From contig CAWJFP010000037.1 in NCBI GenBank assembly GCA_963842155.1, positions 1-37,168 of the forward strand: 37,168 nucleotides of DNA, read 5' to 3'. Made by a program: the position numbers and the translations under genes. This DNA is from an uncultured Pseudomonadota bacterium (GTDB lineage: Bacteria; Pseudomonadota; Alphaproteobacteria; JACZXZ01). Of this stretch, positions 7,961-31,281 are shown piece by piece. A model generated the notes under the pieces. It was not told where the DNA came from. It was given only the letters and a program-made list of their open reading frames with translations, and did not search any database. Positions within the stretch are counted from its first letter, which is position 1; each line of letters begins with the position of its first letter.

Positions 7961-8400
7961 GCGCCTGTACCACGATCCGAATAAGCCTCGCATTGCGGTT
8001 GATTACTTCGCTGGGACAGCTGGGTGGATTTCGAACCACCGACCTCACAGTTATGGTCGGCCCCCGTTCCGCGGCCGGCTAGCCAATCCCGCACGCAGCC
8101 GATGCCCAAGAGCACCGTGATCACAGTCGAGAACAAAATTGGCGCGAAGAAGAAGTACACCCAAGCAATGATGCTGCCCGCCGCATGGCTTAGGAACAGG
8201 GACCACGTGACCAGCGCGAGCGCGAGCCGGTCGCGAGCAGTTCTTCCTCCCAAGTACCACGTCATGACGGCCGAGAAGATAAAGAACACGGAGACGAACC
8301 AGCCGAAGCCCCGATAGAAGCCGTACCAGGTGGCATCGGCACCCTGTGCAACGACGTGGACCGACTTCATCATCGACACGACCGAGATCACTTGCGGCAC
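7939..8400 (-). CDS. Small integral membrane protein (3 predicted TM helices); C-terminus appears replaced by read-through into inserted DNA from about position 8105 downward
   Basis: The first ~100 aa (WYGFYRGFGWFVSVFFIFSAVMTWYL... LALALVTWSLFLSHAAGSIIAWVYFFFAPILFSTVITVLLGIG) are strongly hydrophobic and protein-like. The last ~50 aa are hydrophilic and are encoded by the tRNA-like fragment and the IS1-remnant flank. Confidence 0.45.
   Translation of the reverse strand: MPQVISVVSMMKSVHVVAQGADATWYGFYRGFGWFVSVFFIFSAVMTWYLGGRTARDRLALALVTWSLFLSHAAGSIIAWVYFFFAPILFSTVITVLLGIGCVRDWLAGRGTGADHNCEVGGSKSTQLSQRSNQPQCEAYSDRGTGARGSTPL
8005..8045 (-). other. tRNA-like 3' fragment (T-arm plus acceptor 3' strand ending C-CCA)
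   Basis: The minus strand reads ggtcGGTGGttcgaaatCCACCcagctgtCCCAgcg: a 5-bp stem GGTGG/CCACC around a TTCGAAAT loop (1 nt longer than the canonical T-loop), then a 7-nt strand, a discriminator and CCA. No complementary 5' acceptor strand lies upstream, so it is not a complete tRNA. Confidence 0.3.
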
Positions 8401-8531
8401 CGAACTCCGGCGTTGCCAAGCCAGTCCGCAAGGGCGCGGCCGGGCAGCAGGTGCTGCCCCTCAGAGGTCAACATAAAGGTTGCCAATTGCGGTACCGGCA
8501 TCAGGTCCGCAATCGATTTTACCTGTCTTGC

Positions 8532-10490
8532 TCAGCGCACCTTGCGCTTGCCGAAGGTGGGCTGCACTTCCGGAATAGGCGGCATCTGCCAGGTGCCGAC
8601 GACGGGCATGCTCGTGTCGCGGTTGATGACCACGTCGATGAGGGTCGGAATGTCGGCGCGGATCGCTTCGCGATAGGCGTCGCCGAATTGGTCGGGGTGT
8701 TCGACGCGGATGCCGCGCCCGCCCATGGCTTCGGCCATCTTGGCGAAATCCGGATTCCACAGCTTGCCCGTGCTTTCATTGATGAAGCTCGTGCCGATTT
8801 CACGCCCATCGTGATAGACGCGCTGCAGGTCGCGGATGGTGCCAATGGCGTAGTTGTTCTGCAGCACCCACACAGCGGGGAGATTGTATTCGACGGAGGT
8901 GGCGATGGCATGCGACATCATCATGAAGCTGCCGTCGCCGCACAGCGTCACGCAGGGCGAATTGGGCCGGGCAAGCCTTGCGCCCAAGACGCCGGCCACA
9001 CCGAAGCCCATGGGGGCGAAGCCACCGGCCGTTATGTGCGTGCCGGGGGTCCGCGGCTTCCAGTATTGTTCCGACCAGACTTGGCAGTTGCCGACGTCGT
9101 CGACCATCACCGTGTCGGGCGGGGAGATCTTGTTCATCTCCGCCATCATGCGGCGCGGCTCTATGGGCACTTCATTCGAGCGTTCGAAGGGTTCGCAGAA
9201 ATTGCGCCAGTCCGTACGCCAGGCTTCGATTTCCTTGTGCCAGGAGCTGCCATAGCCTAGACGGTTGCCCTTGGCGCGCGCGATCCTCACCGCTTGGGCG
9301 AGGAAGGTCTTGGCATCGCCGACTATGCCGACCTCGACCGGATAGTTGCGCCCAATTTCGTCCGGGTCGATGTCGACCTGGATGAGGCGTGTCGGCGGGA
9401 TGTTGTAGACATAGCCCGGAATCCACGAGCCCGTATGGAGGTCGTTGAAGCGGGCGCCGATAGCGAGGATCACATCGGCACTGCGGGCGGCTTCGGTGGC
9501 CGGATACTCGCCCCAGACACCGGCGACGCCGAGATTGAGCCGGTGATCGGAGGGAAGCACGCTTTTGCCCATGAAGGACGTATAGACAGGAATGTCGAGT
9601 TGTTCGGCGAGCGCCTTTAATTCCTCATAGGCGCGGGCGACCCGCACGCCGCCGCCGGCGAGGATCAACGGCCGTTGGACGCTGACGAGAAGGTTGAGCG
9701 CCTTCTCGACGGTCTCGTCGGCAACCGTGGTGCGCCAGTTGAGCGGGTGTACATTCGGGTCGGGGGTCGAGACCGGCGCGGTTCTCATATAGAGGTCGTA
9801 GGGCATGTCGAAGTGCACGGGTCCCGGCCTGCCGCTGCGCATCATCGAGAAGGCGTCGGGCAGCGCTTTGACCAGATCCTCAACCTTGCGAATGCGCCAG
9901 GATTTCTTGACGATCGGCGCGAACATCGAGGACATGTCGCCGTGGTAACGGTAGTCGTCCTGCAGGGCGCCGGTGTTGAACTGGGTCGTCGGCACCTGCC
10001 CGGTGATGAGGAAGAACGCTGAGCAGTCATAGAAGGCGTTGGCCACCGAGATCATCATGTTCATGGGGCCCGGACCGGTGGAGGTATAGACGGCGAGCGG
10101 CTGCCCGGTGAGGCGATAGTAGACGTCGGCCATGAAACCGCCTGCCTGCTCTATGCGGGGCGAGATATGGCGGATGCGGTCGGTCTTTTTGTAGAGCCCG
10201 TCGAGTAGGCCGATGGCGCCATGTCCGGCATAGCCGAGGATGTAGGGGACTTTCTCCTTGAACAGATACTCGGCGATGATGTCGGTGCCGCGCATCTCGT
10301 TGGAACCGCCGGGGTAGGGTGAACCTCGTGCCTGCGACCCATAGGGCGAGTAATCAGACGATGTAGTGCCGCGCATCTCGTTGGAACCGCCGGGGTAGGT
10401 TGAACCTCGTGCCTGCGACCCATAGGGCGAGTAACCAGACGATGTGGATTGGGATCCGTAGCCTTCATACGATCTGGGCCGGTCCTGCAT
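8532..10490 (-). CDS. Thiamine-pyrophosphate-dependent enzyme (acetolactate synthase / sulfoacetaldehyde acetyltransferase-like) with a 65-aa S/Y/G-rich low-complexity N-terminal extension
   Basis: The core from DIIAEYLFKEKVPYILGYAGHGAIGLL onward has the Pyr domain, a central domain and the TPP-binding motif LCGDGSFMMMSHAIATSVEYNLPAVWVLQNN (GDG...NN). The ORF starts at 10490 with a strong GGAGG Shine-Dalgarno (caggaggactaaccATG). The internal candidate start M66 (10295) has no Shine-Dalgarno. Confidence 0.8.
   Translation of the reverse strand: MQDRPRSYEGYGSQSTSSGYSPYGSQARGSTYPGGSNEMRGTTSSDYSPYGSQARGSPYPGGSNEMRGTDIIAEYLFKEKVPYILGYAGHGAIGLLDGLYKKTDRIRHISPRIEQAGGFMADVYYRLTGQPLAVYTSTGPGPMNMMISVANAFYDCSAFFLITGQVPTTQFNTGALQDDYRYHGDMSSMFAPIVKKSWRIRKVEDLVKALPDAFSMMRSGRPGPVHFDMPYDLYMRTAPVSTPDPNVHPLNWRTTVADETVEKALNLLVSVQRPLILAGGGVRVARAYEELKALAEQLDIPVYTSFMGKSVLPSDHRLNLGVAGVWGEYPATEAARSADVILAIGARFNDLHTGSWIPGYVYNIPPTRLIQVDIDPDEIGRNYPVEVGIVGDAKTFLAQAVRIARAKGNRLGYGSSWHKEIEAWRTDWRNFCEPFERSNEVPIEPRRMMAEMNKISPPDTVMVDDVGNCQVWSEQYWKPRTPGTHITAGGFAPMGFGVAGVLGARLARPNSPCVTLCGDGSFMMMSHAIATSVEYNLPAVWVLQNNYAIGTIRDLQRVYHDGREIGTSFINESTGKLWNPDFAKMAEAMGGRGIRVEHPDQFGDAYREAIRADIPTLIDVVINRDTSMPVVGTWQMPPIPEVQPTFGKRKVR
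10284..10445. repeat. 81-bp in-frame tandem duplication (2 copies, about 96% identical) inside the 5' end of the TPP-enzyme gene
   Basis: gtgccgcgcatctcgttggaaccgccggggtagg(g/t)tgaacctcgtgcctgcgacccatagggcgagtaa(t/c)cagacgatgt(a/gg) occurs at 10285 and again at 10366. It encodes TSS(G/D)YSPYGSQARGS(T/P)YPGGSNEMRGT twice. Confidence 0.85.
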
Positions 10491-10816
10491 GGTTAGTCCT
10501 CCTGTTGTTTCCTTCGGGTCGATTGGGTTGGTTCAGTGAGCCGTGGTCAGGAATGGGGCGCGCATCGCATCTCTTGCTCGACTATGGCGCCGCTCCCGAA
10601 GGGCAAACCCAGCGCCCCCACCCGTCGCGACCGCCGGTCTCGCTTAAAATGGCGGCCAACCGCCCAACAGAAAATACCCTGAGGAACGAAAGTTTCACGC
10701 AAAAAAGCTAAGCCGGCGTTAGCCGACCCGCGCATATTGTGCCGCCTTTCGGCGTCGCGTGCGTGGCGTCTCGGCCGCGCACTGGCGCGGCCGAGAGCTT
10801 TGTCCACTTGTCGCGG

Positions 10817-12080
10817 CTAGTCGTAGACCTTCTTGCACACCGGCACTTCGCGCCCGGGCAGGCCGATTCTGTCGAAGACCGCCTTGGAAAAGCCAAGCCT
10901 CTCGTTCACGTCGGGCACGACCTTGACGACCTTGGTGACGAGATTGCCGTCCTTGTCCTTGACAACTTCGGTGACGAAAACCGTGCCGATCGCTTGGCGA
11001 TTCTCATCGAGCTTGATCTGTCCGTTCGGCGCGTCGAGCACGAGCGACGCCAGCGCTGCACGGTATTTCTTCTGGCCGTCGCTGAGATCGCCGTTGACCT
11101 TGTCGAGCGCCAGCAGCGCGGCGGTCGTCTCGTCGTAATAATTGACGGCGCAAAACGATGGGCTAGTGAAGCGCTTCTCCGGCGGCCAGGCGTCCTGGTA
11201 CGCCTTCACGAACGCCTGCCAACGCGGATCGTCCCAGGTATCGGCGAAGTGGGCTGCGGAGGCGACGCCGATCAGCGTCTCTTTCGCCTTGCCCTTCGAC
11301 GACAGTATGGTCTGGTCGATCATGATCGAGCCGCCGATGAGCTTGGCATTGCCGCCGGCCTGCTGGTACTGGTTGAGGAAGTTCACGGCATCGGCGCCGC
11401 CGAGGCCGAGATAGATGGCATCGACGTCATCCGGCAGCGACGCGATGGTGGAGGCGAAGTCCTTGGTGCCGAGCGGCACCCACAGGCGCTTGGTGATCTC
11501 GCCGCCGAGCGGGCAATAATCGAGCGCGAGGCCGAACACCTGCGTGTAGGTGAACGCATAGTCCTCGGCGAGCGTCGCGATCTTCTTGTAGTGCTTGACG
11601 TTGTAGATGTACTCGCCCAGCCCCTTATGGATCTGGGCGCCGTCGAGGTTGAAGCGGAAGAAATTCGGCGCCGGATCGACATAGGTCGTCTCCAGCGCGG
11701 CGGAGCAGCCGTTGAGGAACGTGACCTGCGGCTGGGTCTTCGCATAATCATGTATCGCGATGCCTTCCGCGCCCGACAGCGGGGCGATGAGGATATCGAC
11801 CTTGTCCTGCTCGACCAGCTTCTTGGCGGCGCGCAGCGCCGAATCCGGAGTCGTGTCCGATGAGCCTCTGAAGATCTCGAGGTCCTTGCCGCCCGCCTTG
11901 TTGTGATGCTGCATCAGGGCGAGGTCGAAGCCGCGCTGGCCGTCCTCGCCGAGACTGGTGTAGGTACCTTCAAGCGTCGAGAAGAAGCCGATTTTGATCT
12001 TGTCGGCAGCGTTGGCCGATCCGATGCCGACGAGCGCGGCCAACGCGGCCGCGACTACCAATTCCAGTACCCTTACGCAT
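10817..12080 (-). CDS. ABC transporter substrate-binding protein, branched-chain amino acid (LivK/LivJ, PBP type I) family; signal-peptide region carries an apparent +1 frameshift
   Basis: The 414-aa ORF has LIV-binding-protein architecture (KIGFFSTLEGTYTSLG..., ...AIYLGLGGADAVNFLNQYQQAGG...). The in-frame start is only TTG at 12061, giving a truncated, uncharged signal peptide. ATG at 12080 with an AGGAGGG Shine-Dalgarno lies one frame off. Removing one G from aaGGGt restores MRKVLELVVAAALAALVGIGSANA|ADKIKIG, a textbook signal peptide. Confidence 0.75.
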
Positions 12081-14382: not shown

Positions 14383-15456
14383 ATGGCACTGGCGCAGACC
14401 ACGGAATCCGGCCCCGTCGGCTTTGGCAGCGCGCAGCGCAGCTTAGCGCCGCGCTGGGCGTCCCAGCTCTCGCCGATCCTGCTGCTCGGCCTTCTCCTGG
14501 TGCTTCTCCCGGTGGTTGCGAGCGATTTCGTGCTCGACCAGATCGTCGGCTGGGCCTTGGTCCTCGGCATGATCGCGCTGTCGCTGATGTTCCTCGCCGG
14601 CTATGGCGGCATGGTCAGCTTGGTGCAGATGACCGTCGCAGGCGTCGCCGGATACATGATCACCGTGCTCGGAGCGAGTTCACATCCCTCGATCAGCCTG
14701 TTCTGGCCGTGGTGGGTGGCGGCGCCGGTGGCGATCGTGATCGCCGTCGCCTTCGGGACGCTCGCCGGCGCGCTCTCCGCGCGCACCGAGGGCATCTATA
14801 CGATCATGATCACGCTGGCGATCGCCGCCGCTTTCTTCTACCTGACCCTTCAGAACTACTCGATTTTTAACGGTTTCAACGGGTTCACGACGATTCCGGC
14901 GCCGCTAGTTCCTTCGGCGTCAATTGGAAAGCGCCGATCCCGCTCTATTACCTGATTCTGTTTTTCGCCGCGCTCAGCTACGCCGTTGTCGTCGTACGTC
15001 TCCCGCGCGCCGTTCGGCCTCGCTCTGCAAGGCGTGCGCGACAACCCGCGCCGCATGGCGGCGATCGGCTACAACGTCACCGCGCACCGCATCGCGGCGT
15101 ACGCCTTCGCGGCGCTCATCGCGGCGATCGGCGGCATCCTGATGGTGTGGCTCAACAACCAGATCTCTCCCGGCACGGCCGGCATCGAGGCGACGATCGA
15201 CCTTCTCGTCATCGCGGTCGTCGGCGGGCTCGGCCATCCGATCGGCGCCTTTGTCGGCGCGATCATCTACGTCATCCTGCGCACGTTCGCGCTTGACGCG
15301 CTTATCGCGGTCGGACTCGACGGCCGCCGCTTCCAGACCATCATCGGGCTCGGCTTTCTCGTCGTCGTGCTTTTTTCGCCCGATGGAGTGATCGGCCTTT
15401 GGCGGCGGTGGTCGGCGTGGCGCGTCCGCACCTCTGGCGGGAGGAACGGCCGGTGA
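14383..15456 (+). CDS. Branched-chain amino acid ABC transporter permease (LivM family), interrupted by a compensating -1/+1 frameshift pair about 85 bp apart
   Basis: ORFs 14383..14955 and 14986..15456 are in the same frame (both coordinates = 1 mod 3). The 28 codons between them read as genuine hydrophobic LivM sequence (SFGVNWKAPIPLYYLILFFAALSYAVVV) only in the -1 frame. A missing T at about 14910 (gtt-cc) and an extra G at about 14994 (gtcgtcGtac) explain this. In the main frame the connecting segment gives PSASIGKRRSRSIT* with a stop. Confidence 0.7.
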
Positions 15457-16235
15457 GCTCGATCGCCGAACGGATGGCTGCGGCCGGCACCGGCAACGCG
15501 ATCGAATTGCGCGGTGTGAGCCGCTTTTTCGGCGCGCTCGCGGCCTTGACCGACATCACGCTCGGCGTGCGACCCGGAGAGCGACGCGCCGTGCTCGGAT
15601 CGAACGGCGCGGGCAAGACGACGCTGCTCAATTGCGTGACCGGCGATTTTCCACCGACGTCGGGAACCGTGCGATTCTTCGGCGAGGACGTCACGACGCT
15701 GCCGCCGCACGAGCGCATTCGCCGCGGGCTCCGTCGCACCTACCAGATTTCGCTGCTGTTCCAGCGCCTCTCGGTGCGCGACAACGTCTATCTCGCCTGC
15801 CGCGGCGTCTCGCGCGGCCGCTTCTCCTTCATCCGCACGCGCGCGAGTGACGCGCTCATGCAGTCGGTCGCGGACCTCATCTCGCTGGTCCATCTCGAAT
15901 CGGTGACCGATCGTCTGGTCGGGGAGCTGGCGCACGGCCAGCAGCGCCAGCTCGAAATCGCGCTGGCGCTTGCCGGCGCGCCGCGCTTCATCCTTTTCGA
16001 CGAGCCGGCGGCGGGCCTTTCGCCAAACGAACGGGCCGATCTGGTCGCGATCCTCACCGCACTTCCCGCCCATATCGGCTACATCATCATCGAGCATGAC
16101 ATGGACGTCGCGCTGCGGGTCGTCGAGAGCGTCACGATGATGCACAACGGACGCATCTTCAAGGAAGGTTCGCCGCGCGAGATCGAGGCGGATCCCGAGG
16201 TGCAGCAATTGTATTTGGGTGGCGGCCATGCCTGA
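15453..16235 (+). CDS. ABC transporter ATP-binding protein (LivG family)
   Basis: Walker [10 protein letters not shown], signature [15 protein letters not shown] and Walker B FILFDEP; ends ...[12 protein letters not shown]. The GTG start overlaps the LivM stop (GTGA) and has a GGGAGGA Shine-Dalgarno. The internal ATG at 15474 is also possible. Confidence 0.8.
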
Positions 16236-18444
16236 GCGTCGTCCCCCCAACCTGTTGGAGATCAATGGGCTCAACGTCTTCTATGGCCGCAGCCACGCAC
16301 TTCAGGGCGTGGATTTAAAGCTCGAGCACGGCGTGCTTTCGCTGGTGGGACGCAACGGGATGGGAAAGACGACGCTGTGCAATGCGATCGTCGGCCTGAT
16401 CCCGGTCGCCAGCGGCTCGATCCGTTTCATGGGAGAGGAGCTCGTCGGCCGCACGCCAGCCGAGATCGCGCGGCTGGGCCTCGGCTACGTGCCGCAGGGC
16501 CGACGGCTGTGGCCTTCGCTCACGGTCGACGAGCATTTGCGGCTCGCCGCCGGCAATGGCCGGTCGCAGTGGACCATCGCACGCATCTACGAAACATTCC
16601 CGCGGCTGGCGGAACGGCGCACCAATCGCGGTAACCAGCTCTCCGGCGGCGAGCAGCAGATGCTCGCCATTTCGCGCGCGCTCCTTCTCAATCCGCGCCT
16701 GCTCATCATGGACGAGCCGACCGAGGGACTTGCTCCGATCATCGTCGAGCAAGTCGAAGAGATCGTGCTCGGCCTCGGCGAGCAGGGCGACATCGGAGTT
16801 GTCGTTGTCGAGCAGAACATCGGGGTCGCAACCGCAATCGCCGAGAAAGTCGCGATCATGATCAACGGACGGATCAACCGGATCATGGAAGCAGCGCGTC
16901 TGGAGGCGGACCGCGAACTGCAACAGAGATTGCTTGGCGTCGGCGAGCAGGGCGAGGCGGAACCGCCCGTAGAGCCTGGCGAGGCGCCGACCGCGGAAGG
17001 CGGGCGCCGACCGGCGAAGGCGCGCGGGCCGGTCCGCGTCTACGTTTCAAACCCGACGATGCCGACGCGCTGGTCACAGCCGGTCCCCGCCACTCAGATT
17101 GAAACCGCAGCACGCACGCATACAGTTGCGCCCGAGCCCGCAACGTCGGGCGCTGCGCCCGCTGTCGAGCTGCGGCCGATCCATCGCGGCGGCGCGGCGC
17201 CGGTGATCGTCGCAGGAACGCTCGACACCAAAGGCGCTGAACTGCGCTTCATTCGCGACCAGATCGCCGCCGCCGGGGTGCGCGTAATTCTGGTCGATCT
17301 TTCCACCTCTGGCGAGCCGTCGCCCGCCGACGTGCCGCCGCACCATGTCGCGACATATTTCCGCGGCGGGCCAAACGCGGTCTTCACCGGCGAGCGGGGC
17401 GCCGCGATCACAGCGATGGCGGAGGCGTTCGAGGCGTGGATCCGGCGGCAGGAACCGGTCGGCGGTCTCATTTCGGCGGGCGGATCAGGCGGTAGTTCGC
17501 TGGTCGCGCCGGCGATGCGGGCGCTGCCGATCGGCGTGCCCAAGGTCCTCATCTCGTCGGTCGCCTCGGGCAATGTCGCGCCTTATGTCGGTCCGTCGGA
17601 TATCATGATGCTCTACTCCGTGACCGACGTCGCCGGCCTCAATTCAGTGACGCGCCAGGTTCTCGGCAACGGGGCCGCGGCTATGGTCGGCATGGTGAAG
17701 GCGCGCGCCGCCAGCGTCGAGCGCGATCGGGTGCCTGCGCGGCGCGGCGGCGGTAAGCCGGCGATCGGCCTCACCATGTTCGGGGTGACGACGCCCTGCG
17801 TCGACGCGGTGGTCGACGCGCTCGAAGAGGACTTCGAGTGTCTCGTTTTCCACGCGACGGGCATCGGCGGGCAATCCATGGAGAAGCTCGTCGATTCCGG
17901 CGTCCTCGCGGGAGTGATCGACATTACAACAACCGAGGTCTGCGATCTTCTGTGCGGCGGGGTGTTTCCGGCCACCGAGGATCGGTTCGGAGCGATCGTG
18001 CGCACCAGAGTCCCTTATGTCGGTTCATGCGGGGCGCTCGACATGGTGAACTTCGGGTCCATGGACAGCGTCCCCGAGCGCTATCGCGGCCGCAACCTCC
18101 ACATCCACAATCCCACCGTGACGCTGATGCGCACGACGCCCGAGGAGAACGTGCGGATCGGACGCTGGATCGGAGAGCGGCTCAACTTGATGGACGGCCC
18201 GGTGCGCTTTTTCCTGCCGGAGGGCGGCGTCTCGGCGCTTGACGCGCCGGGTCGGCCGTTTTCGGATCCGATCGCCGACGAAGAGCTGTTCAGATCGCTC
18301 GAAGCAACCGTTCGACAAACCGCCTCGCGCCGCCTCATCCGGCTGCAGGCGCATATCAACGACCCGCGCTTCTCGGCAGAAATCGTCGCCGAATTTCGTC
18401 GGTTGTTCGGTGGCCGGCTCGCCCGCCGGCGGGCAAAGGGGTAG
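16219..18444 (+). CDS. Continuous 741-aa ORF: LivF-like ABC ATPase (aa 1-240), PAE-rich low-complexity linker (about 90 aa), and UPF0261 / Tm-1-like domain (aa ~320-741)
   Basis: N-terminus: Walker [10 protein letters not shown], signature [15 protein letters not shown], Walker B LLIMDEP; the LivF body ends around ...[10 protein letters not shown]. There is no stop after that point. The ORF continues ...[21 protein letters not shown]...[15 protein letters not shown] and then [35 protein letters not shown]...[32 protein letters not shown]...[11 protein letters not shown]...FHATGIGG, which is typical of the UPF0261 family. The start is GTG 16219 or ATG 16228, overlapping the LivG stop. Confidence 0.6.
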
Positions 18445-18448
18445 CCGC

Positions 18449-19283
18449 ATGCCGCGCATCCCGCGCTCCGACATTCTCGCGCGGCTCCACGCGATGAAAG
18501 CGCGGGGCGAACCGATCATCGGCGCGGGCGCCGGGACGGGCCTCTCGGCGAAGGGCGAGGAGGAGGGCGGCGCCGATCTTATTGTCATCTACAATTCGGG
18601 GCGGTACCGCATGGCCGGCCGGGGGTCGCTCGCCGGCATGATGCCATATGGCGACGCCAACGGCGTCGTGCTCGAAATGGCCCGCGAGGTGCTGCCCGTC
18701 GTCACCCGCACGCCGATCCTCGCCGGGGTGTGCGGCACCGACCCCTTCCGCCAAATGGATCACTTTTTGGATGAAGTCGCACAGCTGGGCTTCAGCGGTG
18801 TGCAGAATTTCCCGACCGTCGGGCTCATCGACGGCCGCTTTCGGGCGGGGCTCGAGGAGACGGGCATGGGCTATGCCCGCGAAGTCGAGATGATCGCCAA
18901 GGCGCGCGCACGCGACCTTCTGACCACGCCCTACGTGTTCGACCCCCCAGAAGCCGCCGCGATGGCGCGCGCGGGCGCCGACGTCCTGGTCTGCCACTTC
19001 GGCCTGACCGTCGGCGGCTCGATCGGGGCCGCGACGTCGACCCGGCTGGAGAATTGTCCGACGTTGACCGACGCGATGGCCGAGGCGGCGCTCGCGGTGA
19101 ACCGCGACGTTTTTATCCTCGTTCACGGCGGGCCGCATCGCCGAGCCGGCCGACGCCGAGTATGTCCTGGCGCGGGCTCGCCACTGCCACGGCTTCTATG
19201 GCGCTTCGTCGATGGAGCGTCTGCCGGTCGAGCGCGCGCTATGTGCCCAGGTTGCAAAATTCAAAGCGATCAAGAAAGCTTAG
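18449..19283 (+). CDS. PEP-hydrolase-like TIM-barrel protein (PF09370-type; canonical partner of UPF0261, fused to it in plant Tm-1), with an apparent +1 frameshift near the C-terminus
   Basis: [85 protein letters not shown]... matches the family. After ...FILVHGGP the conserved tail [48 protein letters not shown] (stop 19281-19283) lies in the +1 frame. An extra C at about 19136 (ccgCatc) explains the shift. Confidence 0.7.
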
Positions 19284-19339
19284 TGGAGTGAAGAACAGGC
19301 CCGCGTCGGACCAACGGTCGGCGGGCGGGAGGAAGTAAG

Positions 19340-22300
19340 ATGTCCGTCGCCATTCTCGGTAGCCTGATCATCTGGCTGATCGTCGCGGTCATCGTCATCG
19401 CGATCGTCGTCTATTTCGTCAACTGGCTCTACCACCGTTCCTCGAAGGAAGTCTCCTTCGTGCGCACCGGCCTGTTCGGCGAAAAGGTGGTGATCAACAG
19501 CGGGGCCTTCGTTCTGCCGTTCATTCACGAGGTCACCCCGGTCAACATGAACGTCCTGCGCATGCAGGTCGTCCGCAACCGCGATGACGCGCTCATCACC
19601 AAGGACCGGATGCGCGTCGACATCGAGTCGGAGTTTTACGTCCGGGTGCCGCCGACGCGGGAGGCGGTGACGATCGCCGCCGCAACGCTCGGCCGGCGCA
19701 CGACCAACGTCGCCGAGCTCGACACGCTGTTATCCGGCAAGTTCATCTCCGCCCTGCGCTCGGTCGCCTCCGAGATGACGATGGTGGAGATGCACGAGCG
19801 GCGCGGCGAATACGTCGCCCGGGTCAAGGAATCGGCGCTGGAAAGCCTCAAGCAGAACGGCCTCGAACTCGAATCGGTGGCGATCACTGATCTCGACCAG
19901 ACCGACCTTGAATTTTTCAATCCGTCGAACCGCTTCGACGCCGAAGGTCTGACCAAGCTGATCGAGGACATCGAAGCGCGGCGCAAGCTGCGCAACGACA
20001 TCGAACAGGAATCGATGATCCTCATTCGCAGCCGCAATCTCGAAGCCGAGAAACAGGCGCTGGACATTGATCGCGAAAGCGAGACCGCACGCCTCAATCA
20101 GGAACGTGACATCGAGGTGAGACGCGCGGTTCAGCGCGCCGAACTCGCCCGCGAGCGCTCCTTGCGCGACACCGAGGCGGAGCAGGCCCAAATCTCCGGC
20201 CGCGAGGAGGTCGAGAAGACACGCATCGCCCATGAGCGCACCCTCGCCGAGGCGCGCATCACTTCCGAGCGCGAAATTCGCGAGCGCGAGATCGAGCGTG
20301 GTCGCCAGATCGACGAGGCGGAGATCGCTGCGCGCGAACGCGTCGAGCGCGCGCGCATCGCCCAGGAACGGGTCGTCACCGAGGCGCGGATCGCCCGCGA
20401 GGAAGACGACCAGCGACGTGAAATCGAACGCACGCGCAACGTCGAGCAGGCCGAAATTGTCGCGCGCGAGGAGACCGAGAAAGCGCGCATCGCGCAGGAG
20501 GTCGCAGTGACCGCGGCGCGCATCGCCCAGGAGCGAGGAGAATAGGCGCCTCGAGATCGAGCGCGCGCGCAACTTGGAGCAGGCCGAGATCGCGGCTCGC
20601 GAGACCACCGAGCGCGCGCGTATCGCGCAGGAGCGCGTGGTCACTGACGAACGCATCGCGCTCGAAGAAGAAATCCGGCGCCGCGAGATCTCGCGCAACC
20701 GCGCGATCGACGAGGAAGAGATCGCCGCTGCGAAGGCCACAGAAGCCGCCCGCATCGCTCGCGAAAAGGCGCTCGCCGCCGAGCGCATCGCCTCCGAGCT
20801 CGCCACCCGGACGCTCGAAATCGAGCGGACGCGGTCGCTGGAGGAAACCGATATCGCGGCGCGAGAAGTCACGGCCGCGGCGCGCATCCAGCAGGAGGAG
20901 CGCATCCGAGCGCTCGACATCGCCCGCAACCGCTCGATCGAGGAGGCCGAGATCGCGGCGCGCGAGGCGGTCGAGGCGTCGCGTATCGCCCAGGAGAAGA
21001 AGATCGCCGTCGAGCGGATCGCCGCCGAGGAGCTGACGAGGAGCCGCGAGATCGGGCGAATCAAGACCATCGAGGCCGCCGAAATCGCCGCCCGCGAGTC
21101 GACCGAGACCGCGCGCATCGCCCTCGACAAGAAGATCGCCGCGGACCGTATCGGCGCCGACCAGGAGACCCGCGGGCTGGAGATCGCCCGCAACGAAGCG
21201 ATCGAGTCCGCCGAGATCGCCTCGCGCCAGGTCGTCGAATCGGTCCGCATTCTGGAGGACCGCAAGATCGCCGCGGAGAAAATATCGCGCGATGAAGAGG
21301 TGCGCTCGCTGGAGATTGCCCGCAATCGCGCGGTCGATACGGCCGAGATCGCGGCGCGCGAGGCGGTCGAGGCGACGCGTATCGCCCAGGAGAAGAGGAT
21401 CGCCGCGGAGCGCATCGCGGCCGAACAGGAGACCAAATCGCGCGACATTGCGCGCGAGCAGGCGATCGAAGACGCCGAGATCAGGCGGCGCGAGGCCGTC
21501 GAGGCCGCGCGCATCGCGGTCGAACTTGCGCTGGAGCAGGAGAGGATCGAGTCGTCGAAGACGCGCGATGTACTCGACGTCGAGCGCCGGAAAGTCTTGG
21601 AGATCGCCGAGCAGGATCGCTCGATCGAAGTCGCAGCCAAGCTTGCCGAGCGTGCTGACGCCGATCGTCGGGTGAAGGAAGCCGATATCGTCGCGGCGCA
21701 GCACGTGGGGCGCACAGACGTTGTGCGCGAGCAGACCCTCGATCTGGCCCGGCTCGAACGCCGAAGGGCGGTGGAGCAATTCGAGGTCGCCCGCTCACAG
21801 TCACTGCAGGAAGCCGAGATCGCGGCCCGCGAGGAGGTCGAGCGTGCGCGCATCGCCTCGGAACGTGGCATCGACGAGGCGCGCATCCTGCGCGACCGGG
21901 AACTGCGTCAGCTCGAAATCGGCCGCGAAACGGCGGTCGAGACCGCCCGCATGGAGAGCACCATCGAAATCCACCGCAAGTCGCGCGAACAGTCGGCGGC
22001 ACAGGCCGACGCCGAGACGGCCCGCGCCCAAGCGGTCGAGGCCGAGGAGCGGGTCAAGACGGTACGCGAGAGCGAGGCGGCGCGCCGCCGGCGCGCGGTC
22101 GAAGTGCTCATCGCCGAGAAGGAGGCCGACGAAGTGCGGATCGCGGCGGCTGCCGAACAGGTGCGCTCCGCGGTCGAGGCCGACGCGCAGCGGCTCCTCA
22201 ACGAAGCCGAGAACGTTCTCACCGACGCGGCCCGCGCGTCGCTGTTCCGCCGCAGGCTGCTCGAGCGTATCGAAGGCATCGTCCGCGAGAGCGTCAAGCC

Positions 22301-22595
22301 GATGGAGAAGATCGAGGGCATCCGCATCCTGCAGGTCGACGGCCTCAACGGCGGGCGCGGCGGCTCGGGTGGGCGCAGCGCCACCGATGAGGTCATCGAT
22401 TCGGCGCTGCGTTACCGCGTGCAGGCGCCGATGATCGACCAGATCCTCGCCGAGATCGGCATCGAGGGCGGCAGCCTCTCGCGAATGCCGGGCCTCATTC
22501 GCGAGGCGCGCGATATGCAGGGCATCCGCAAGGAGGCGGCGCCGAAGAAGCCGCCCGAAGAGGGCGGAGGCGGATCATCGTCGGGGCAGACCTGA
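19340..22595 (+). CDS. Giant flotillin / SPFH (band-7) family protein (~1085 aa) with an expanded coiled-coil repeat region; one apparent +1 frameshift at about 20535-20545
   Basis: N-terminal TM helix (ILGSLIIWLIVAVIVIAIVVYFV), then an SPFH domain (EVSFVRTGLFGEKVVINSGAFVLPFIHEVTPVNMNVLRMQVV...). A long E/A/R/I-rich repeat region follows, then a flotillin-type C-terminus (...IRILQVDGLNGGRGGSGG...). ORFs 19340..20545 and 20574..22595 join if one G is removed from cgagGag: ...ARIAQER(E)ENRRLEIERARNLEQAEIAARE... continues the repeat pattern without a break. Confidence 0.7.
20040..21650. repeat. About twelve tandem 132-bp (44-codon) coding repeats inside the flotillin-like gene
   Basis: Example: gccgagatcgcggcgcgcgaggcggtcgaggcg(t/a)cgcgtatcgcccaggagaag(a/g)a(g)gatcgccg appears at about 20948 and again at about 21345 (3 x 132 bp) with 2-3 mismatches. 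The protein-level unit is RxLEIxRxRxxExAEIAAREAVEAxRIAQEKxIAAERIAAEQET. Confidence 0.8.
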
Positions 22596-23084: not shown

Positions 23085-23546
23085 ATGATCCGGATTGTCC
23101 GCTCGACGATCATCGACGCGCCGACTGACCGCGTCTGGGCGTTCCTGCGCGATTTCAACGGGCACGAACGCTGGCATCCGGCCGTCGCCAAGAGCGCGAT
23201 CGAGCGCGGCCAGAGCGCCGACAAACTGGGTTGTGTGCGGCGCTTCTTCCTGCGCGACGGCTCGGAGCTCCGCGAGCGTCTGCTGACACTCTCCGACCTC
23301 GAGCAGAGCTTTACCTATTGCCTGCTCGAGACGCCGATTCCGCTATTCAATTATACTGCCCATGTCCGCCTCGCGCCGGTCACCGATGGCGACCGGACGT
23401 TCTGGGAGTGGCGGTGTTCGTTCTCGACGAGGAAAGGCGAGGAGGCTGAAATGACGCGCCTCGTCGGCGAGGACATCTATGACGCGGGATTCGCCGCCGT
23501 TCGTGCTCATCTCGCCGCATCCTCGGGATTGGAGGGCCGCGCGTGA
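23085..23546 (+). CDS. SRPBCC-superfamily protein, tandem paralog of the preceding gene
   Basis: MIRIVRSTIIDAPTDRVWAFLRDFNGHERWHPAVAKSAIE... is about 45% identical to the upstream paralog. Its stop overlaps the GTG start of the FAD subunit (GTGA). Confidence 0.6.
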   Translation: MIRIVRSTIIDAPTDRVWAFLRDFNGHERWHPAVAKSAIERGQSADKLGCVRRFFLRDGSELRERLLTLSDLEQSFTYCLLETPIPLFNYTAHVRLAPVTDGDRTFWEWRCSFSTRKGEEAEMTRLVGEDIYDAGFAAVRAHLAASSGLEGRA

Positions 23547-24355
23547 GCATCACGGTAAAGACCTTCGCCCGATTAGCCGACGCGGCCGCGGCGCTCGCGA
23601 GCGAACGCGGGGCGCGCTTTCTCGGCGGCGGAACGCTGCTCATGCGCGCGGTCAATGAGGCCGACCCGGCGATCGAGACGATCGTGCGCTCGAGCGATCC
23701 CACCCTCCTCAACATCGCAGTCTCGTCGGGCCGCGTGGAGCTCGGCGGCGGCGCGACCATGGCCGCGATCCTCGCCGAGCGCGAACTCGCGTTTCTGCAT
23801 CCGGTGGCGCGCGTGGTCGGCAGCCCGGCGGTGCGCGAGGCGGCGACCGTCGGCGGCAATCTGTTTGCGACAAAAGGCGACTTCGCGACGGCGCTGCTCG
23901 CGCTCGACGCGACCGTGATGCTCGCTGGCGGCGTCGGTCAACGCGAGCTGCCGCTCGAAGAGTTTCTCGGTCGTCGCGAGCGGGGGGCCGCGCTCGTATC
24001 GAGCGTCGCGTTCAAGCGGCCGGCGGCCGACGCGTTCCGGTTTGCCAAGGTCACCCGCGTCCACCCCAAAGGCATGTCGGTCCTCTCGATCGCTGCCCAA
24101 TTGCCCCTTGTCAGCGGCCGGATAACCGGCGCGAGGATTGCCTATGGCGGGATGGATCGTACGCCAGTGAGGGCCAAGGCGGCTGAACGGGCACTCGAGA
24201 GCCGCGGGCTCGACGCGGCCGGCATCGCTCCGGCTCTCGCCGTAGCCGCCGACGGCACCTCACCCGCCGACGACGCGATCGCCAGCGCCTGGTGGCGGCG
24301 GGAAATCCTCCTTGTCCATCTGCGCCGGCTGCTGCTCGGCGTCGGCCAAGCGTGA
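23543..24355 (+). CDS. Molybdopterin-dehydrogenase FAD-binding (medium) subunit, CoxM/XdhB-like
   Basis: RFLGGGTLLM and ...REAATVGGNLF... FAD-binding motifs; 270 aa; GTG start coupled to the preceding gene. Confidence 0.75.
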   Translation: MSITVKTFARLADAAAALASERGARFLGGGTLLMRAVNEADPAIETIVRSSDPTLLNIAVSSGRVELGGGATMAAILAERELAFLHPVARVVGSPAVREAATVGGNLFATKGDFATALLALDATVMLAGGVGQRELPLEEFLGRRERGAALVSSVAFKRPAADAFRFAKVTRVHPKGMSVLSIAAQLPLVSGRITGARIAYGGMDRTPVRAKAAERALESRGLDAAGIAPALAVAADGTSPADDAIASAWWRREILLVHLRRLLLGVGQA

Positions 24356-24362
24356 GGCGCCG

Positions 24363-24842
24363 ATGAAGACGCCGATTCAATTTCGTCTCAATGATGAGGA
24401 TGTCGCCGCCTTCGCCGAGAGCGGCGCCAACCTGCTCGACGTGCTGCGCGAATCGGTCGGCGACCTGTCGGTGAAGGGCGGCTGCTGGCAGGGCACCTGC
24501 GGCGCGTGCACGGTGCTTGTCGACGGCGCGCCGCGCCTTGCCTGCGTAACACTGGCGGAAAGCTGCGCCGAGCGGTCGGTCGAGACCGTCGCGGGGCTGC
24601 GGCGCGGCCCCGACCTCCACCCCCTGCAAAGTGCCTTCATGGAGCGCTTCGCGGCCCAGTGCGGCTATTGCACGCCGGGCATGCTGATGGCAGCCAAGGC
24701 GCTCCTCGACCGCAATCCCAATCCCTCCCGGGAGGATGTCGTCGACGCCATTTCCGGCAATATCTGCCGCTGTACTGGCTATGAACCCATCATCCAGGCG
24801 GTCCTCGAAGCCGCCCGCGGCGACAGCCGTCGCCGCGCCTGA
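24363..24842 (+). CDS. (2Fe-2S)-binding small subunit, CoxS/XdhC-like
   Basis: MKTPIQFRLNDEDV... with plant-type ferredoxin cysteines CWQGTCGACTV and a second cluster motif QCGYCTPGMLM...GNICRCTGYEPI. GAGG Shine-Dalgarno 7 nt upstream. Confidence 0.85.
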   Translation: MKTPIQFRLNDEDVAAFAESGANLLDVLRESVGDLSVKGGCWQGTCGACTVLVDGAPRLACVTLAESCAERSVETVAGLRRGPDLHPLQSAFMERFAAQCGYCTPGMLMAAKALLDRNPNPSREDVVDAISGNICRCTGYEPIIQAVLEAARGDSRRRA

Positions 24843-24853
24843 AGGACACCGCC

Positions 24854-26475
24854 ATGCTCGAATTCCGCAAGGACATTTTCGCCGACGAACGCGACGACAA
24901 CCTGAAGGAGGTCGGCCACCCGACGCAGCGTCAGGACATGCTCGGGCACGTCACCGGGACCTCGGCCTATTACGATGATCACCGCTTCGCCAACCTGCTC
25001 CATCTGAAGGTTCTGCGCAGTCCGCATGCCCATGCGCGTATTCGCTCGATCGACGACTCGGTCGCGGCGCGCGCGCCGGGCGTCAAGCGGATCATTCGGG
25101 CGGCCGACGTTCCGGTCAATCTCAATACGCTCTTGAGCCTCATCCAATTCGGCAAGGACGACGAGCCTTCGCTCGCGACCGACGTCGTGCGCTACAAGGG
25201 CGAGCCGATCATCGGAGTAGTCGCGACCAGCGAGCGCGCGGCGCTTCAGGCCCTCGCCATGGTGCGCGTCTCCTACGATCCGCTGCCGGCAGTCTTCGAT
25301 GTAGAGGAGGCGCTGAAGCCGGGAGCCCCGTCGGTCAACGCAACCTATCCGAAGAACACGTTCGAATATTACGGCAAATACGACCACCAGAAGCTTCGTT
25401 TCGGCGACGCCGATACGGCCTTCGCGCAGGCCGACGTCGTGCTCGAAGAGCGCTATCAGATGTCGCCGATCGAGCATGCCCCGATCGAGACCAACGGCTC
25501 AATCGCCGTGCCGGACACGAACGGCCGATTTGTCGTTTACACCTCGACCCAGGCGCTCTTCTTCTCTTTGGACACCGCCGCCAAGATCAATGCGATGCCC
25601 TCGAACCAGTTGCATTTCATCGGCGGCACTGTCGGCGGCGGCTTTGGCGGCAAGGTCGACACCCTCACCGAGCCCCTCGTCATCCTCGCGGCGCGCCTGA
25701 CGGGCGCACCCGTGCGCTACCGGCTGAGCCGGCACGAGGAAATGCAGTTCGGCTCGCCCCGCGGCGCTGAGCGAATCTATGTCAAAGACGGCGTCATGCG
25801 GGATGGGCGGATCATCGCCCGCAAGGTGAGAGCTTATTTCGACAGCGGGGCCTACACGCGGCTTTCGAGCTACGCGGCAGTCAAATGCGCGGCCCATATT
25901 CCCGGACCCTATACGATCCCCAACGTCCACGCGGACATCTTCTGCGTTTTCACCAACCGAACACCGGCGACCGCAATGCGCGGGTTCGGCGTCACGGCGC
26001 TCGACTTCGCGCTTGAATGCCAAATGGACAAGCTCGCCGTTGCGGTCGAGATGGACCCTCTCGAGTTCCGCATTCTCAATGCTTACCGCGACGGCGACAT
26101 GAAAGCGCACCGGCGCGAGGCCAAGAACTGCGCGCTCATCGAATGCGCGCAGGTCGCCGCTGAAAAAGCCAACTGGCCGATCCGCGAGGAATTCCGCAGG
26201 ATGTCGTCGCGGGTCGGCGGGGGGCAGCGCGGACCGGCGGCGGCGCGACCCGGACCGGCGCACAGGCTCCTGTCGCCGCCCCCGCGCCCGCACAAACCGG
26301 GGCAGGCTCGCCCCAGCGTGTCCCGTACGATCGCGCCGCTGCGGCCGCGCCGGCACATAACGTGCCACCGCCGACGCCCGCGCGAAGCGCACCGCCACCC
26401 CCTGCCGCGCCGCCTGCCGGATCGACGCATGGGGCGCCGCGCTTTTCCTCAGTTTTTGGAACACGGAGGCGCTGA
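24854..26475 (+). CDS. Molybdopterin-binding subunit, N-terminal half (xanthine dehydrogenase / aldehyde oxidase family), with a probable Pro/Ala-rich C-terminal tail reached through a -1 shift in a G6 homopolymer
   Basis: Conserved to about aa 450 (...HFIGGTVGGGFGGKVDT..., ...TPATAMRGFGVTALDFALECQMDKLA...). After the G-run at 26219-26224 the annotated frame becomes Arg-rich nonsense and overruns the next start. The -1 frame instead gives AQAPVAAPAPAQTGAGSPQRVPYDRAAAAAPAHNVPPPTPARSAPPPPAAPPAGS... and stops at TGA 26473-26475, 3 nt before the next ATG, which has a GGAGG Shine-Dalgarno. Confidence 0.65.
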
Positions 26476-26478
26476 TCA

Positions 26479-27501
26479 ATGGCCAAGCATCGCGGACGCG
26501 GGGTGGCGACCATCAATTATCCGATCGGCATGAATCTCGGCGGCGATCCGAGCCAAGCGCTGGTTCATTCCAATCCGAGCGGAAAATTCACCGTCGCTCT
26601 TTCCTCGATCGACCTCGGACAGGGAATGAAATCGGTGACGCGGCAGATCTGCGCGGAGACGCTAGGCGTGCCGGTCGAGGACGTCTATGTCGACACCGCC
26701 GATTCGGACACCGGCCCGCATTGCATGGGCTCGTTCGCCTCGCGCGGAACGCACCGCGTCGGCAACGCGGTGATGGTAGCGGCGCGCGAGGCGCGCGCGG
26801 TCATGATGGAGGCGGCGGCGGAGGAGCTTGAAGTCGACCCAGGCGACCTCGAGACCGACGGGCGCGGCTCCATCCGGGTGAAGGGCGCGCCCCACCGGTC
26901 GATCTCCGTGCGCGACGTCGCTATCGCGGCCCAGTTCCGTCAGGGACGTACGATCTCCGGGCGCGGCATTTTCCTGGTGCCGTTGTCGGACGTCGATCCG
27001 GAAACCGGCGAGATGTCGCCGGCAACCTGCTACGCCCACGCCTGTCTCATTGTCGAAGTCGAGGTCGATGACGAGACCGGCGACGTCACCGTGCTGAAGA
27101 TGACAAGCGCCTACGAGGTTGGGCGCGCGATCAACCCCAAGCTCGTCGAACAGCAACTCGTCGGCGGCTCATGGATGGGCATGAGTCACGCGCTCTATGA
27201 GACTACGGAACCGTATTACCCGGATACCCGTGAGGGACCGCGGGACTTCAACGAATACCTGATGCCCGGCCCCGGCGACATCTGTCCGCACGACATTGTG
27301 GTGCTCGAACGGCCCGCCCCTGACGGCCCCTTCGGCGCGAAGGGCCTGGGCGAGATGTGCGCCAATCCCGTCCTGCCGGCGGTCGCCAACGCGATTTTCG
27401 CGGCGGTTGGTGTGCGTATCAACGAACTGCCAATCACGCCGGAGAAAGTTCTCAGGGCGCTGAAAGCGCGGGGCGGCGCGGCCCCGGCGCGCGCGCGGTG
27501 A
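26479..27501 (+). CDS. Molybdopterin-binding subunit, C-terminal half (separate ORF; split large subunit)
   Basis: MAKHRGRGVATINYPIGMNLGGDP... corresponds to the start of the C-terminal Mo-cofactor domain of single-chain XDH-family large subunits. It has its own GGAGG Shine-Dalgarno and ATG, and a conserved ...GPFGAKGLGEMCANPVLPAVANAI... tail. Confidence 0.75.
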   Translation: MAKHRGRGVATINYPIGMNLGGDPSQALVHSNPSGKFTVALSSIDLGQGMKSVTRQICAETLGVPVEDVYVDTADSDTGPHCMGSFASRGTHRVGNAVMVAAREARAVMMEAAAEELEVDPGDLETDGRGSIRVKGAPHRSISVRDVAIAAQFRQGRTISGRGIFLVPLSDVDPETGEMSPATCYAHACLIVEVEVDDETGDVTVLKMTSAYEVGRAINPKLVEQQLVGGSWMGMSHALYETTEPYYPDTREGPRDFNEYLMPGPGDICPHDIVVLERPAPDGPFGAKGLGEMCANPVLPAVANAIFAAVGVRINELPITPEKVLRALKARGGAAPARAR

Positions 27502-27507
27502 TCTGTC

Positions 27508-30383: not shown

Positions 30384-30416
30384 CTAGGGGTTTGGACCCC
30401 GAGCGGGGAGGAACGC

Positions 30417-31265: not shown

Positions 31266-31281
31266 CGAAAGGGGACGTCCA

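Follow-up and report, generated by a model that had tools for sequence, protein, structure and literature searches.

A 652-amino-acid thiamine diphosphate (ThDP) enzyme, encoded on a contig from an uncultured alphaproteobacterium (Pseudomonadota, lineage JACZXZ01; GenBank assembly GCA_963842155.1, contig CAWJFP010000037.1), carries a Ser/Tyr/Gly-rich N-terminal extension, here called the tail. We analyzed the 37,168 nucleotide stretch that contains the gene (the window) together with orthologous loci, which are designated by L numbers. Sequence comparison shows that the tail is not young: it is specific to a lineage of this enzyme subfamily and is conserved throughout Alphaproteobacteria. The alignments show that conservation applies to the composition, the positions and spacing of the aromatic residues, a small positive charge and two short motifs, and not to the sequence itself.

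The list of open reading frames (ORFs) places the gene at 8532..10490 on the minus strand, and the N-terminus of the encoded protein is identical to the sequence quoted in a first-pass annotation of the same DNA. The gene consists of the following parts:

10498..10503 (-), Shine-Dalgarno (SD) sequence AGGAGG with a 7-nt spacer to the start codon; the upstream string reads …CAGGAGGACTAACC ATG.

10488..10490 (-), ATG start codon of the 652-amino-acid protein (real start); orthologs begin at the equivalent M-x-[DE]-R-x-[RK]-S-Y position.

10446..10490 (-), tail residues 1-15 (MQDRPRSYEGYGSQS), the conserved N-terminal basic/Tyr motif, defined by tail alignments of 16 Xanthobacteraceae-type and 22 Hyphomicrobiaceae-type sequences.

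10365..10445 (-), repeat unit A, residues 16-42 (TSSGYSPYGSQARGSTYPGGSNEMRGT), which holds a copy of the first residues of the core, SNEMRG (Tandem Repeats Finder, pairwise identities).

10284..10364 (-), repeat unit B, residues 43-69 (TSSDYSPYGSQARGSPYPGGSNEMRGT), which matches unit A at 78/81 nt and closes with SNEMRGT, where the conserved core begins.

10293..10295 (-), codon of M66, named as an alternative start in the first-pass annotation and rejected here; no SD lies upstream, and 29 of 63 species have a residue other than Met at the equivalent position.

8532..10283 (-), catalytic core, residues 70-652 and stop codon, with the Pfam domains TPP_enzyme_N, TPP_enzyme_M and TPP_enzyme_C.

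Pfam assigns residues 66-178, 261-399 and 465-620 to TPP_enzyme_N, TPP_enzyme_M and TPP_enzyme_C (E-values 1.7e-25, 2.6e-45 and 7.3e-40). With scores of 89.6, 153.9 and 136.7 bits against gathering cutoffs of 26.8, 30.4 and 21.9, the protein belongs to the POX/ALS superfamily (ALS, acetolactate synthase). No NCBIfam equivalog reaches its cutoff: the biosynthetic ALS large subunit profile TIGR00118 scores 410.2 bits (cutoff 538.35), glyoxylate carboligase NF008431 314 (cutoff 791) and sulfoacetaldehyde acetyltransferase TIGR03457 276 (cutoff 676), and the remaining ALS equivalogs (PRK and others) stay far under theirs. The best PDB matches of the core are BbmA (8x3x, the closest, E = 1e-87), yeast acetohydroxyacid synthase (AHAS) and glyoxylate carboligase, and the closest PDB entries contain 4-6 chains. 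A database cluster look-up returned only the generic label "acetolactate synthase". Judged by these profile scores, the core is an uncharacterised ALS-like ThDP subfamily. Its conserved part begins near residue 63-66: the NCBIfam ALS-type profiles all start at residues 61-67, PDB homologs align from residues 53-66 on (most from ~61-67, a few from 53), and N64, E65, R67 and G68 are invariant in a family alignment of 26 sequences. The three-domain core is shared with ALS, glyoxylate carboligase and BbmA-type enzymes; an S/Y-rich N-terminal tail is absent from all of the solved homologs. At the other end of the protein, residues 624-652 (8532-8620, minus strand) carry the near-invariant pattern G-T-W-Q-M-P-P-I-P-E-x-x-P-x-F-G-x-R-K-x-R and have a predicted local distance difference test score (pLDDT) <50; this segment may be a second flexible, basic element of the subfamily.

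Genomic loci with a tail were inspected for signs of translation. In 51 of the 62 loci with a tail, a GGAGG-type SD precedes the distal ATG by 3-12 nt, and a match of at least 4 nt is found in 58 of them. The frame of the tail stays open across 60+ species, with in-frame indels. In eight independent close pairs, tail substitutions at codon positions 1/2/3 amounted to 42/17/101 (chi-square p = 7e-16), and this excess at third positions is the pattern of coding sequence under purifying selection. The G+C content at third codon positions (GC3) of the tail equals that of the core in many lineages. A search of 10100-10900 against Rfam yielded nothing at E ≤ 1, leaving an explanation at the RNA level unsupported. 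Taken together, these comparisons show residues 1 to ~62 to be a translated tail, with translation from the ATG at 10490 behind AGGAGG. The first-pass annotation had described the extension as coding and low-complexity and had placed a strong SD before a distal ATG about 65 codons ahead of the core; the substitution pattern, the AGGAGG at 10503-10498 and the profile starts at 61-67 bear this out.

To determine the distribution of the tail, 5.8 billion proteins were searched, which yielded 4,139 relatives, and tails were inspected in the best 120 (73-94% identity). Every full-length member of these 120 has an S/Y/G/P/T-rich extension of 24-75 residues, located ahead of the N-E-[MI]-R-G-x-D-I-I-A-E-Y-L core; the members that lack it are gene calls with a truncated N-terminus or a short start. 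In addition, 80 species-level genomic loci were collected, and the open frame upstream of the GHGAIGLLDG anchor was read in each. An S/Y/G/R/P/T-rich tail of ~16-88 amino acids was present in 62 alphaproteobacterial species loci (core 71-93% identical). All sampled alphaproteobacterial orthologs are tailed, including those of Xanthobacteraceae, Roseiarcus, Pseudolabrys, Hyphomicrobiaceae, Anderseniella, Hoeflea, Rhizobiaceae, Phyllobacteriaceae, Microbaculum, Rhodobacteraceae, Thalassospiraceae, Rhodospirillaceae and Geminicoccales. Tail-less orthologs with 62-66% identity were found in four other phyla, namely in Desulfobacterales, Chloroflexota, the Synergistota-like Acetomicrobium, Thermodesulfobacteriota and a Firmicutes metagenome-assembled genome (MAG) (L057-L060, L062); they start at MAE[M/Y/H/L]RGN[DE]II or MEYRGCDVI, directly behind a strong SD. 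A SAR116-type subfamily (paralogs L072-L080, 45% identical) is likewise without a tail. The tail is present in Alphaproteobacteria and absent from the orthologs outside this class and from the SAR116-type subfamily, and therefore was gained within Alphaproteobacteria.

The first-pass annotation had suggested comparing orthologs for presence and copy number of the repeat. The comparison revealed alphaproteobacterial orthologs with a tail, mostly a distal SD, and one or two 27-amino-acid units, and orthologs outside Alphaproteobacteria that start directly at the core behind an SD. The suspected variation in length was confirmed between species. The statement that the extension has no counterpart in the ALS family holds for characterised enzymes, curated profiles and solved structures, but not for the enzyme's own orthologs, nearly all of which are tailed. 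Two observations on single genomes were made along the way. Two contigs of MAG MFD05705.bin.1.150 (L006 and L007) each contain a tailed copy with tails 7 nt apart, representing either recent paralogs or strain heterogeneity. L036 and L065 (~8001-8200 in both) show a frameshift within the tail-coding region, where the N-terminal motif is readable and the frame is then lost; this is either an assembly error in low-complexity sequence or real pseudogenisation.

The pooled tails consist of 22% S, 13% G, 10% R, 9% Y, 8% P, 8% T and 8% A, with Lys below 1%, I+L+V+F+W+C at ~5%, Q at 3.8% and N at 3.6%. The window tail contains no I, L, V, F, W or C at all, and other tails contain 0-5 such residues in scattered positions. 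The net charge is 0 to +4 in every tail, compared to a mean of ~-10 for the core. Aromatic columns are the best-conserved residue class in both tail-type alignments, with a conservation of 0.92 in the Xanthobacteraceae-type and 0.74 in the Hyphomicrobiaceae-type tails; the respective values are 0.69 and 0.54 for Ser and 0.45 and 0.51 for Pro. Two short motifs are conserved, M-x-[DE]-R-x-[RK]-S-Y at the N-terminus and S-Y-x3-4-G-[ST]-N-E-[MI]-R-G at the junction to the core (S-Y-S-G-M-P-G-[ST]-N-E-M-R-G), and R4 and Y8 of the window protein, like their counterparts in other tails, vary little or not at all. Adjacent aromatics occur in none of 61 distinct tails, with 27 expected from shuffles, and the minimum gap between aromatics is at least 3 in all but one of them. 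In 80% of the tails the aromatics are distributed more evenly than after shuffling (mean z -0.78). For 20 representative tail types the probability of zero aromatic adjacency is 4e-6.

The tail is of low complexity and predicted to be intrinsically disordered, as the first-pass annotation had expected. An AlphaFold2 (AF2) model, built from the 26-sequence alignment and used for tail disorder only, gave a pLDDT of 25-32 and no secondary structure for residues 1-65. The tail also appears to be confined to this enzyme: when residues 1-65 were compared by phmmer with 1.84 billion representatives, this enzyme accounted for 7 hits and the only others were three spurious repeat proteins, and in a composition scan of 1,854 ORFs from the fetched loci 40 of the 42 hits with a Tyr-rich window were this enzyme. 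One of the two other hits is a small Y/G/S-rich ORF beside the ThDP enzyme gene in L016 (9975-10379, minus strand; SYSSRSYSAGAAGSYSRSGYGYGGRGRYGYY). It resembles a small secreted Gly/Tyr-rich protein and is probably unrelated to the tail.

What might such a tail do? ALS-family ThDP enzymes are obligate dimers and usually tetramers, so 2-4 tails would be displayed per particle. Each tail would offer 5-8 Tyr at even distances together with ~5 Arg, set in polar spacers and attached to a core of net acidic charge. Tyr-Arg pairs were reportedly identified as the main stickers by Wang and colleagues in 2018. Evenly spaced aromatic stickers characterise liquid-like prion-like domains (PLDs) (PMC8638251). 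Because the tail has even aromatic stickers in polar spacers as these domains do, we favour, with a modest degree of confidence, the reading that the oligomeric enzyme carries it as a multivalent sticker tail, which would drive clustering, condensate partitioning or docking. The first-pass annotation had pointed to self-association or condensate formation, and the conservation and even spacing of the aromatics lend this idea indirect support. Weak multivalent contacts (Tyr-Tyr, Tyr-Arg and electrostatic contacts between tail and core) would then lead to concentration-dependent clustering or to entry into an existing membraneless compartment. Valence would be tuned by repeat number, and the conserved terminal motifs could in addition dock a specific partner.

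The tail resembles the PLDs of FUS and the FET proteins in several respects. It is [S/G]Y[S/G]-rich and almost devoid of aliphatics, its aromatics are conserved, evenly spaced and never adjacent, and Arg is a possible second sticker; disorder, a further property of these domains, is predicted for it by a model that is weak as a whole. It agrees with a FUS-like composition in being polar and of low complexity with Tyr as main aromatic and few aliphatics, although Arg makes up 10%; it also agrees in the evenly spaced, preferentially conserved aromatics, for which the correction for phylogeny is approximate. Unlike FUS, the tail is bacterial, has ~30-70 amino acids and a Q/N content of ~7%, is richer in Arg, Pro and Thr, and is located on a metabolic enzyme instead of an RNA-binding protein. 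Low-complexity and prion-like regions are known in bacteria, for instance in Clostridium botulinum Rho (PMC4703818; survey PMC6400439). Like these, the tail is a lineage-restricted low-complexity N-terminal addition to a conserved protein that keeps its composition over its sequence. Those domains are N/Q-rich and amyloid-prone, whereas the tail is S/Y/G/R-rich with no sign of amyloid cores and is probably invisible to N/Q-based predictors.

Several points weigh against the sticker reading. We infer the mechanism from likeness of sequence grammar. Well-studied PLDs have at least 100 amino acids compared to ~30-70 for the tail, which is also poor in Q/N and rich in P/T/R, making FUS only a partial analogue. 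The spacing statistics correct for shared ancestry only approximately, by use of the 20 representative tail types. The AF2 model is weak as a whole (mean pLDDT 57.8), and the low pLDDT of the tail is for that reason weak evidence by itself. No conserved neighbouring gene in the 80 loci hints at a partner or compartment. Finally, the clade of the window shows no third-position bias: substitutions at positions 1, 2 and 3 are [8,9,5] against L001 and [11,8,9] against L071. The constraint on the tail may thus be relaxed in this clade, and the missing bias is partly due to homogenisation of the repeat copies.

Other kinds of appendages and domains were compared as well. A canonical N/Q-rich prion domain of the PLAAC type was ruled out by the Q and N contents of the pooled tails. 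Eukaryotic AHAS enzymes have N-terminal extensions that are organelle transit peptides. Like targeting peptides, the tail is an N-terminal appendage on a cofactor enzyme, and many Hyphomicrobiaceae-type tails start with M-[DE]-R-R-x-x-Y, which includes a twin-arginine pair. A Tat or Sec signal peptide was rejected since there is no hydrophobic h-region. A microcompartment or encapsulin targeting peptide was rejected as well, with no amphipathic helix predicted and no shell or encapsulin genes in the flanks of up to 8 kb around the 80 loci (ORFs within ~6 kb clustered).

As the main alternative, the tail might work through its two conserved short linear motifs, the S/Y/G region between them being a linker with loose constraint on its length. 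The motifs would then bind a specific partner, the surface of the enzyme itself (autoregulation), or a protease or adaptor (as a degron). In both tail types the terminal motifs are the most conserved parts and the middle varies in length and sequence; the invariance of R4, Y8 and their equivalents fits this explanation too. Since the phmmer search gave no homolog of the tail on other protein families, a partner would have to be peculiar to this enzyme. A pure linker, however, needs neither conserved, evenly spaced aromatics nor avoidance of aliphatics and Lys, and no conserved neighbour suggests a partner. On balance we consider this explanation possible and rather doubtful as a full account; it and the sticker model are not mutually exclusive.

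A more specific proposal, which we regard as rather unlikely, is that the tail is a natural "condensation tag" kept throughout the class. In this case a short Tyr/Arg sticker tail, grown by duplication of the gene's own 5' end, would give the enzyme a metabolic condensate of its own or entry into an acidic body such as bacterial ribonucleoprotein bodies (BR-bodies) or the PopZ microdomain. The valence, and with it the concentration threshold, would depend on the number of repeats. BR-bodies, which are scaffolded by the C-terminal intrinsically disordered region of RNase E, are acidic, negatively charged condensates with >100 clients, among them the metabolic enzyme aconitase, and are conserved in Alphaproteobacteria (PMC13616956). 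The tail occurs in the same taxonomic class as the BR-body and PopZ scaffolds, and as a basic Tyr/Arg tail it could partition into BR-bodies. BR-body clients are mostly net negative and are not known to use such tails, and there is no sequence similarity. The restriction of the tail to Alphaproteobacteria, the home of RNase E bodies, is suggestive, not evidence. If the proposal were true, no bacterial metabolic enzyme with a natural PLD tag would have preceded this one.

An essentially functionless appendage fits the sequence data poorly, and we consider it improbable. The tail would in that case be translated and drifting, a product of 5' duplications and start-codon migration whose loss is neutral. 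Tail divergence is indeed 1.5-4 times core divergence in most pairs, tail length is highly variable, and the clade of the window lacks a codon-position bias. Against this stand the presence of the tail in every sampled alphaproteobacterial ortholog, down to 71% core identity, with no lineage having returned to a short start, and the strong third-position bias in several clades. Aromatic positions are selectively conserved and adjacent aromatics are wholly avoided; moreover, composition converges in tails that expanded independently (L052, L054).

A prior description of such a tail was not found in the searchable literature. Bacterial prion-like regions were already known; new among them is a Q/N-poor tail of the Tyr/Arg-sticker type that occurs class-wide on a metabolic enzyme. 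Eukaryotic cells use low-complexity tails of the sticker-and-spacer kind as a central principle of their organisation. Known bacterial condensate scaffolds use other grammars, and predictors trained on eukaryotic or N/Q-rich sequences miss tails of this kind. The family offers natural variants with no tail, one unit, two units, Gly-rich or SYQGG-repeat tails, along with conserved Tyr residues and tail-less controls. With an enzyme that is easily assayed, the system makes it testable whether bacteria organise metabolism by aromatic-sticker tails.

The start codon deserves separate consideration, since the first-pass annotation had offered M66 as an alternative true start. In that case (or with M39) the upstream 195 nt would be a 5' untranslated region, the ribosome-binding site having been displaced by the duplication. 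Curated profiles and solved homologs begin at ~residue 63-66, some gene callers pick internal starts in relatives, giving entries of 613-615 amino acids, and in the window genome the tail GC3 of 0.65 is lower than the core GC3 of 0.83. On the other side, no SD precedes M66 or M39 in the window sequence, and in orthologs the SD sits before the distal ATG. A start codon is present at the M66-equivalent position in only 34 loci, 33 of them without an SD-like match. In the 29 of 63 species without Met, this position holds I (16), T (9), L (2), V (1) or R (1), and it is non-Met in 51 of 115 database proteins. Frame, composition and protein-level motifs are conserved, the substitution pattern is coding and Rfam has no match. 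By this comparison a start at M66 is refuted at the family level, and we consider it extremely unlikely. Gene callers that use the internal Met therefore cut off a real, conserved part of the protein.

The first-pass annotation had also reported two near-identical 27-amino-acid repeats from an 81-bp duplication. Tandem Repeats Finder detects them at 10285-10445 (period 81, 2.0 copies, 97% matches, score 308), and direct alignment of units A and B (27 codons each, residues 16-69) yields 3 differences in 81 nt. Identity of 96% over 81 nt far exceeds what chance would produce. Each unit ends with SNEMRGT, the conserved core start, and the duplicated segment therefore spans the junction between tail and core. 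The identities between unit A and unit B are as follows:

window, 78/81

L001, 67/81

L071, 62/81

L004, 60/81

L002, 48/81

Between L001 and L071, A-to-A and B-to-B identities are both 70/81 and exceed the A-to-B values of 62-67. Roseiarcus L003 has one unit only. Throughout the Xanthobacteraceae-type group (16-species alignment) the two-unit skeleton Y-S-x-Y-G-S-Q-x-R-x-S-x-Y … [ST]-E-x-R-G is repeated. Since the copies in two-unit relatives are diverged and like units are more similar than A and B, the duplication is old, and the copies in the window were recently homogenised, either through gene conversion or through collapse to a single unit that was then duplicated anew. According to these alignments, the tail was lengthened when a 27-codon unit, with the first core residues in it, was duplicated in tandem, an event that is old in the Xanthobacteraceae-type lineage. 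The extension had been called young in the first-pass annotation. This does not hold for the tail, which is found in 62 alphaproteobacterial loci, or for the two-unit architecture, as the units of relatives have diverged to 48-67/81; recent is only the near-identity of the copies in the window genome.

Further expansions took place elsewhere. The Thalassospiraceae ortholog L052 (7905-9785) has a tail of four SYQGG/SYQSS repeats, the Rhodobacteraceae ortholog L054 (2339-4489) an 88-amino-acid tail with 42 Gly and GYGSP repeats, and L042 an additional YTSPTPSYSS segment. The three expansions are independent, and L052 and L054 converge on the grammar of Tyr in polar spacers.

That the near-identical duplication is an assembly or sequencing artefact, the real genome having diverged copies or a single one, has hardly any likelihood: homogenised copies are present in no other available sequence (among metagenome contigs scanned for an exact 33-mer of the unit, just one matched, and its units are diverged as in L001) and the window holds an interrupted permease gene that is possibly a sequence error, but the copies differ at 3 positions, in frame, the length of 652 amino acids is that of >20 related two-unit proteins, and both copies are mosaics when set against the A and B types that relatives have, which gene conversion would be expected to produce and a collapsed assembly would not.

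The surroundings of the gene were compared using flanks of up to 8 kb around the 80 loci, with 729 flanking ORFs (within ~6 kb) clustered de novo. By tblastn of the window neighbours and by this clustering, no neighbour cluster was common to more than 14 of the 80 loci, and none encodes a shell protein. There is no widely shared neighbour, and gene context therefore gives no partner for the tail. In the window the gene adjoins genes for a substrate-binding protein (SBP), an AraC protein and a Liv-type ATP-binding cassette (ABC) transporter. A consensus scan detected two putative, terminator-like elements:

10710..10729 (-), terminator-like hairpin and T-run between the upstream binding-protein gene and the ThDP enzyme gene.

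8481..8500 (-), terminator-like hairpin directly past the stop codon of the ThDP enzyme gene.

Since these hairpins flank the gene, it is probably monocistronic in the window. In ~14 loci, and in the relatives L081-L084, the tailed gene stands immediately behind a co-oriented operon, which encodes a CoxL-like Mo-hydroxylase, a MoxR AAA ATPase, VWA_CoxE, a Lactamase_B-fold protein and an SGL-isochorismatase fusion. The window contains the same operon at 23543-32853 (plus strand), with a CoxM-like FAD subunit and a split CoxL-like Mo-hydroxylase. At the position of the ThDP enzyme gene in this operon lies an insertion sequence transposase (DUF772 and DDE_Tnp_1, 33147-34232), and the ThDP enzyme gene itself is located 22 kb from the operon on the other strand. 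From this gene order we infer that the enzyme is tied to a Mo-hydroxylase-dependent catabolic pathway.

Three further observations concern other genes of the window. The LivM-like ABC permease gene at 14383-15456 (plus strand) has an in-frame stop at 14953-14955 with non-permease-like residues just ahead of it, and is either a pseudogene or affected by a local sequence error. A single frame of 741 amino acids at 16219-18444 (plus strand) encodes an ABC_tran ATPase followed by the N- and C-terminal domains of UPF0261, and is perhaps a LivF-UPF0261 fusion, unless the ORF was called too long; the next gene, at 18239-19291 (plus strand), is PEP_hydrolase-like. Diverged tandem repeats of 132/133 bp (2.6 and 4.6 copies, 67-69% matches) are located at 20316-21517 within Band_7/SPFH and flotillin-like genes (ORFs 19340-20545 and 20574-22595, plus strand), where they correspond to 44-amino-acid repeats of the coiled-coil type.

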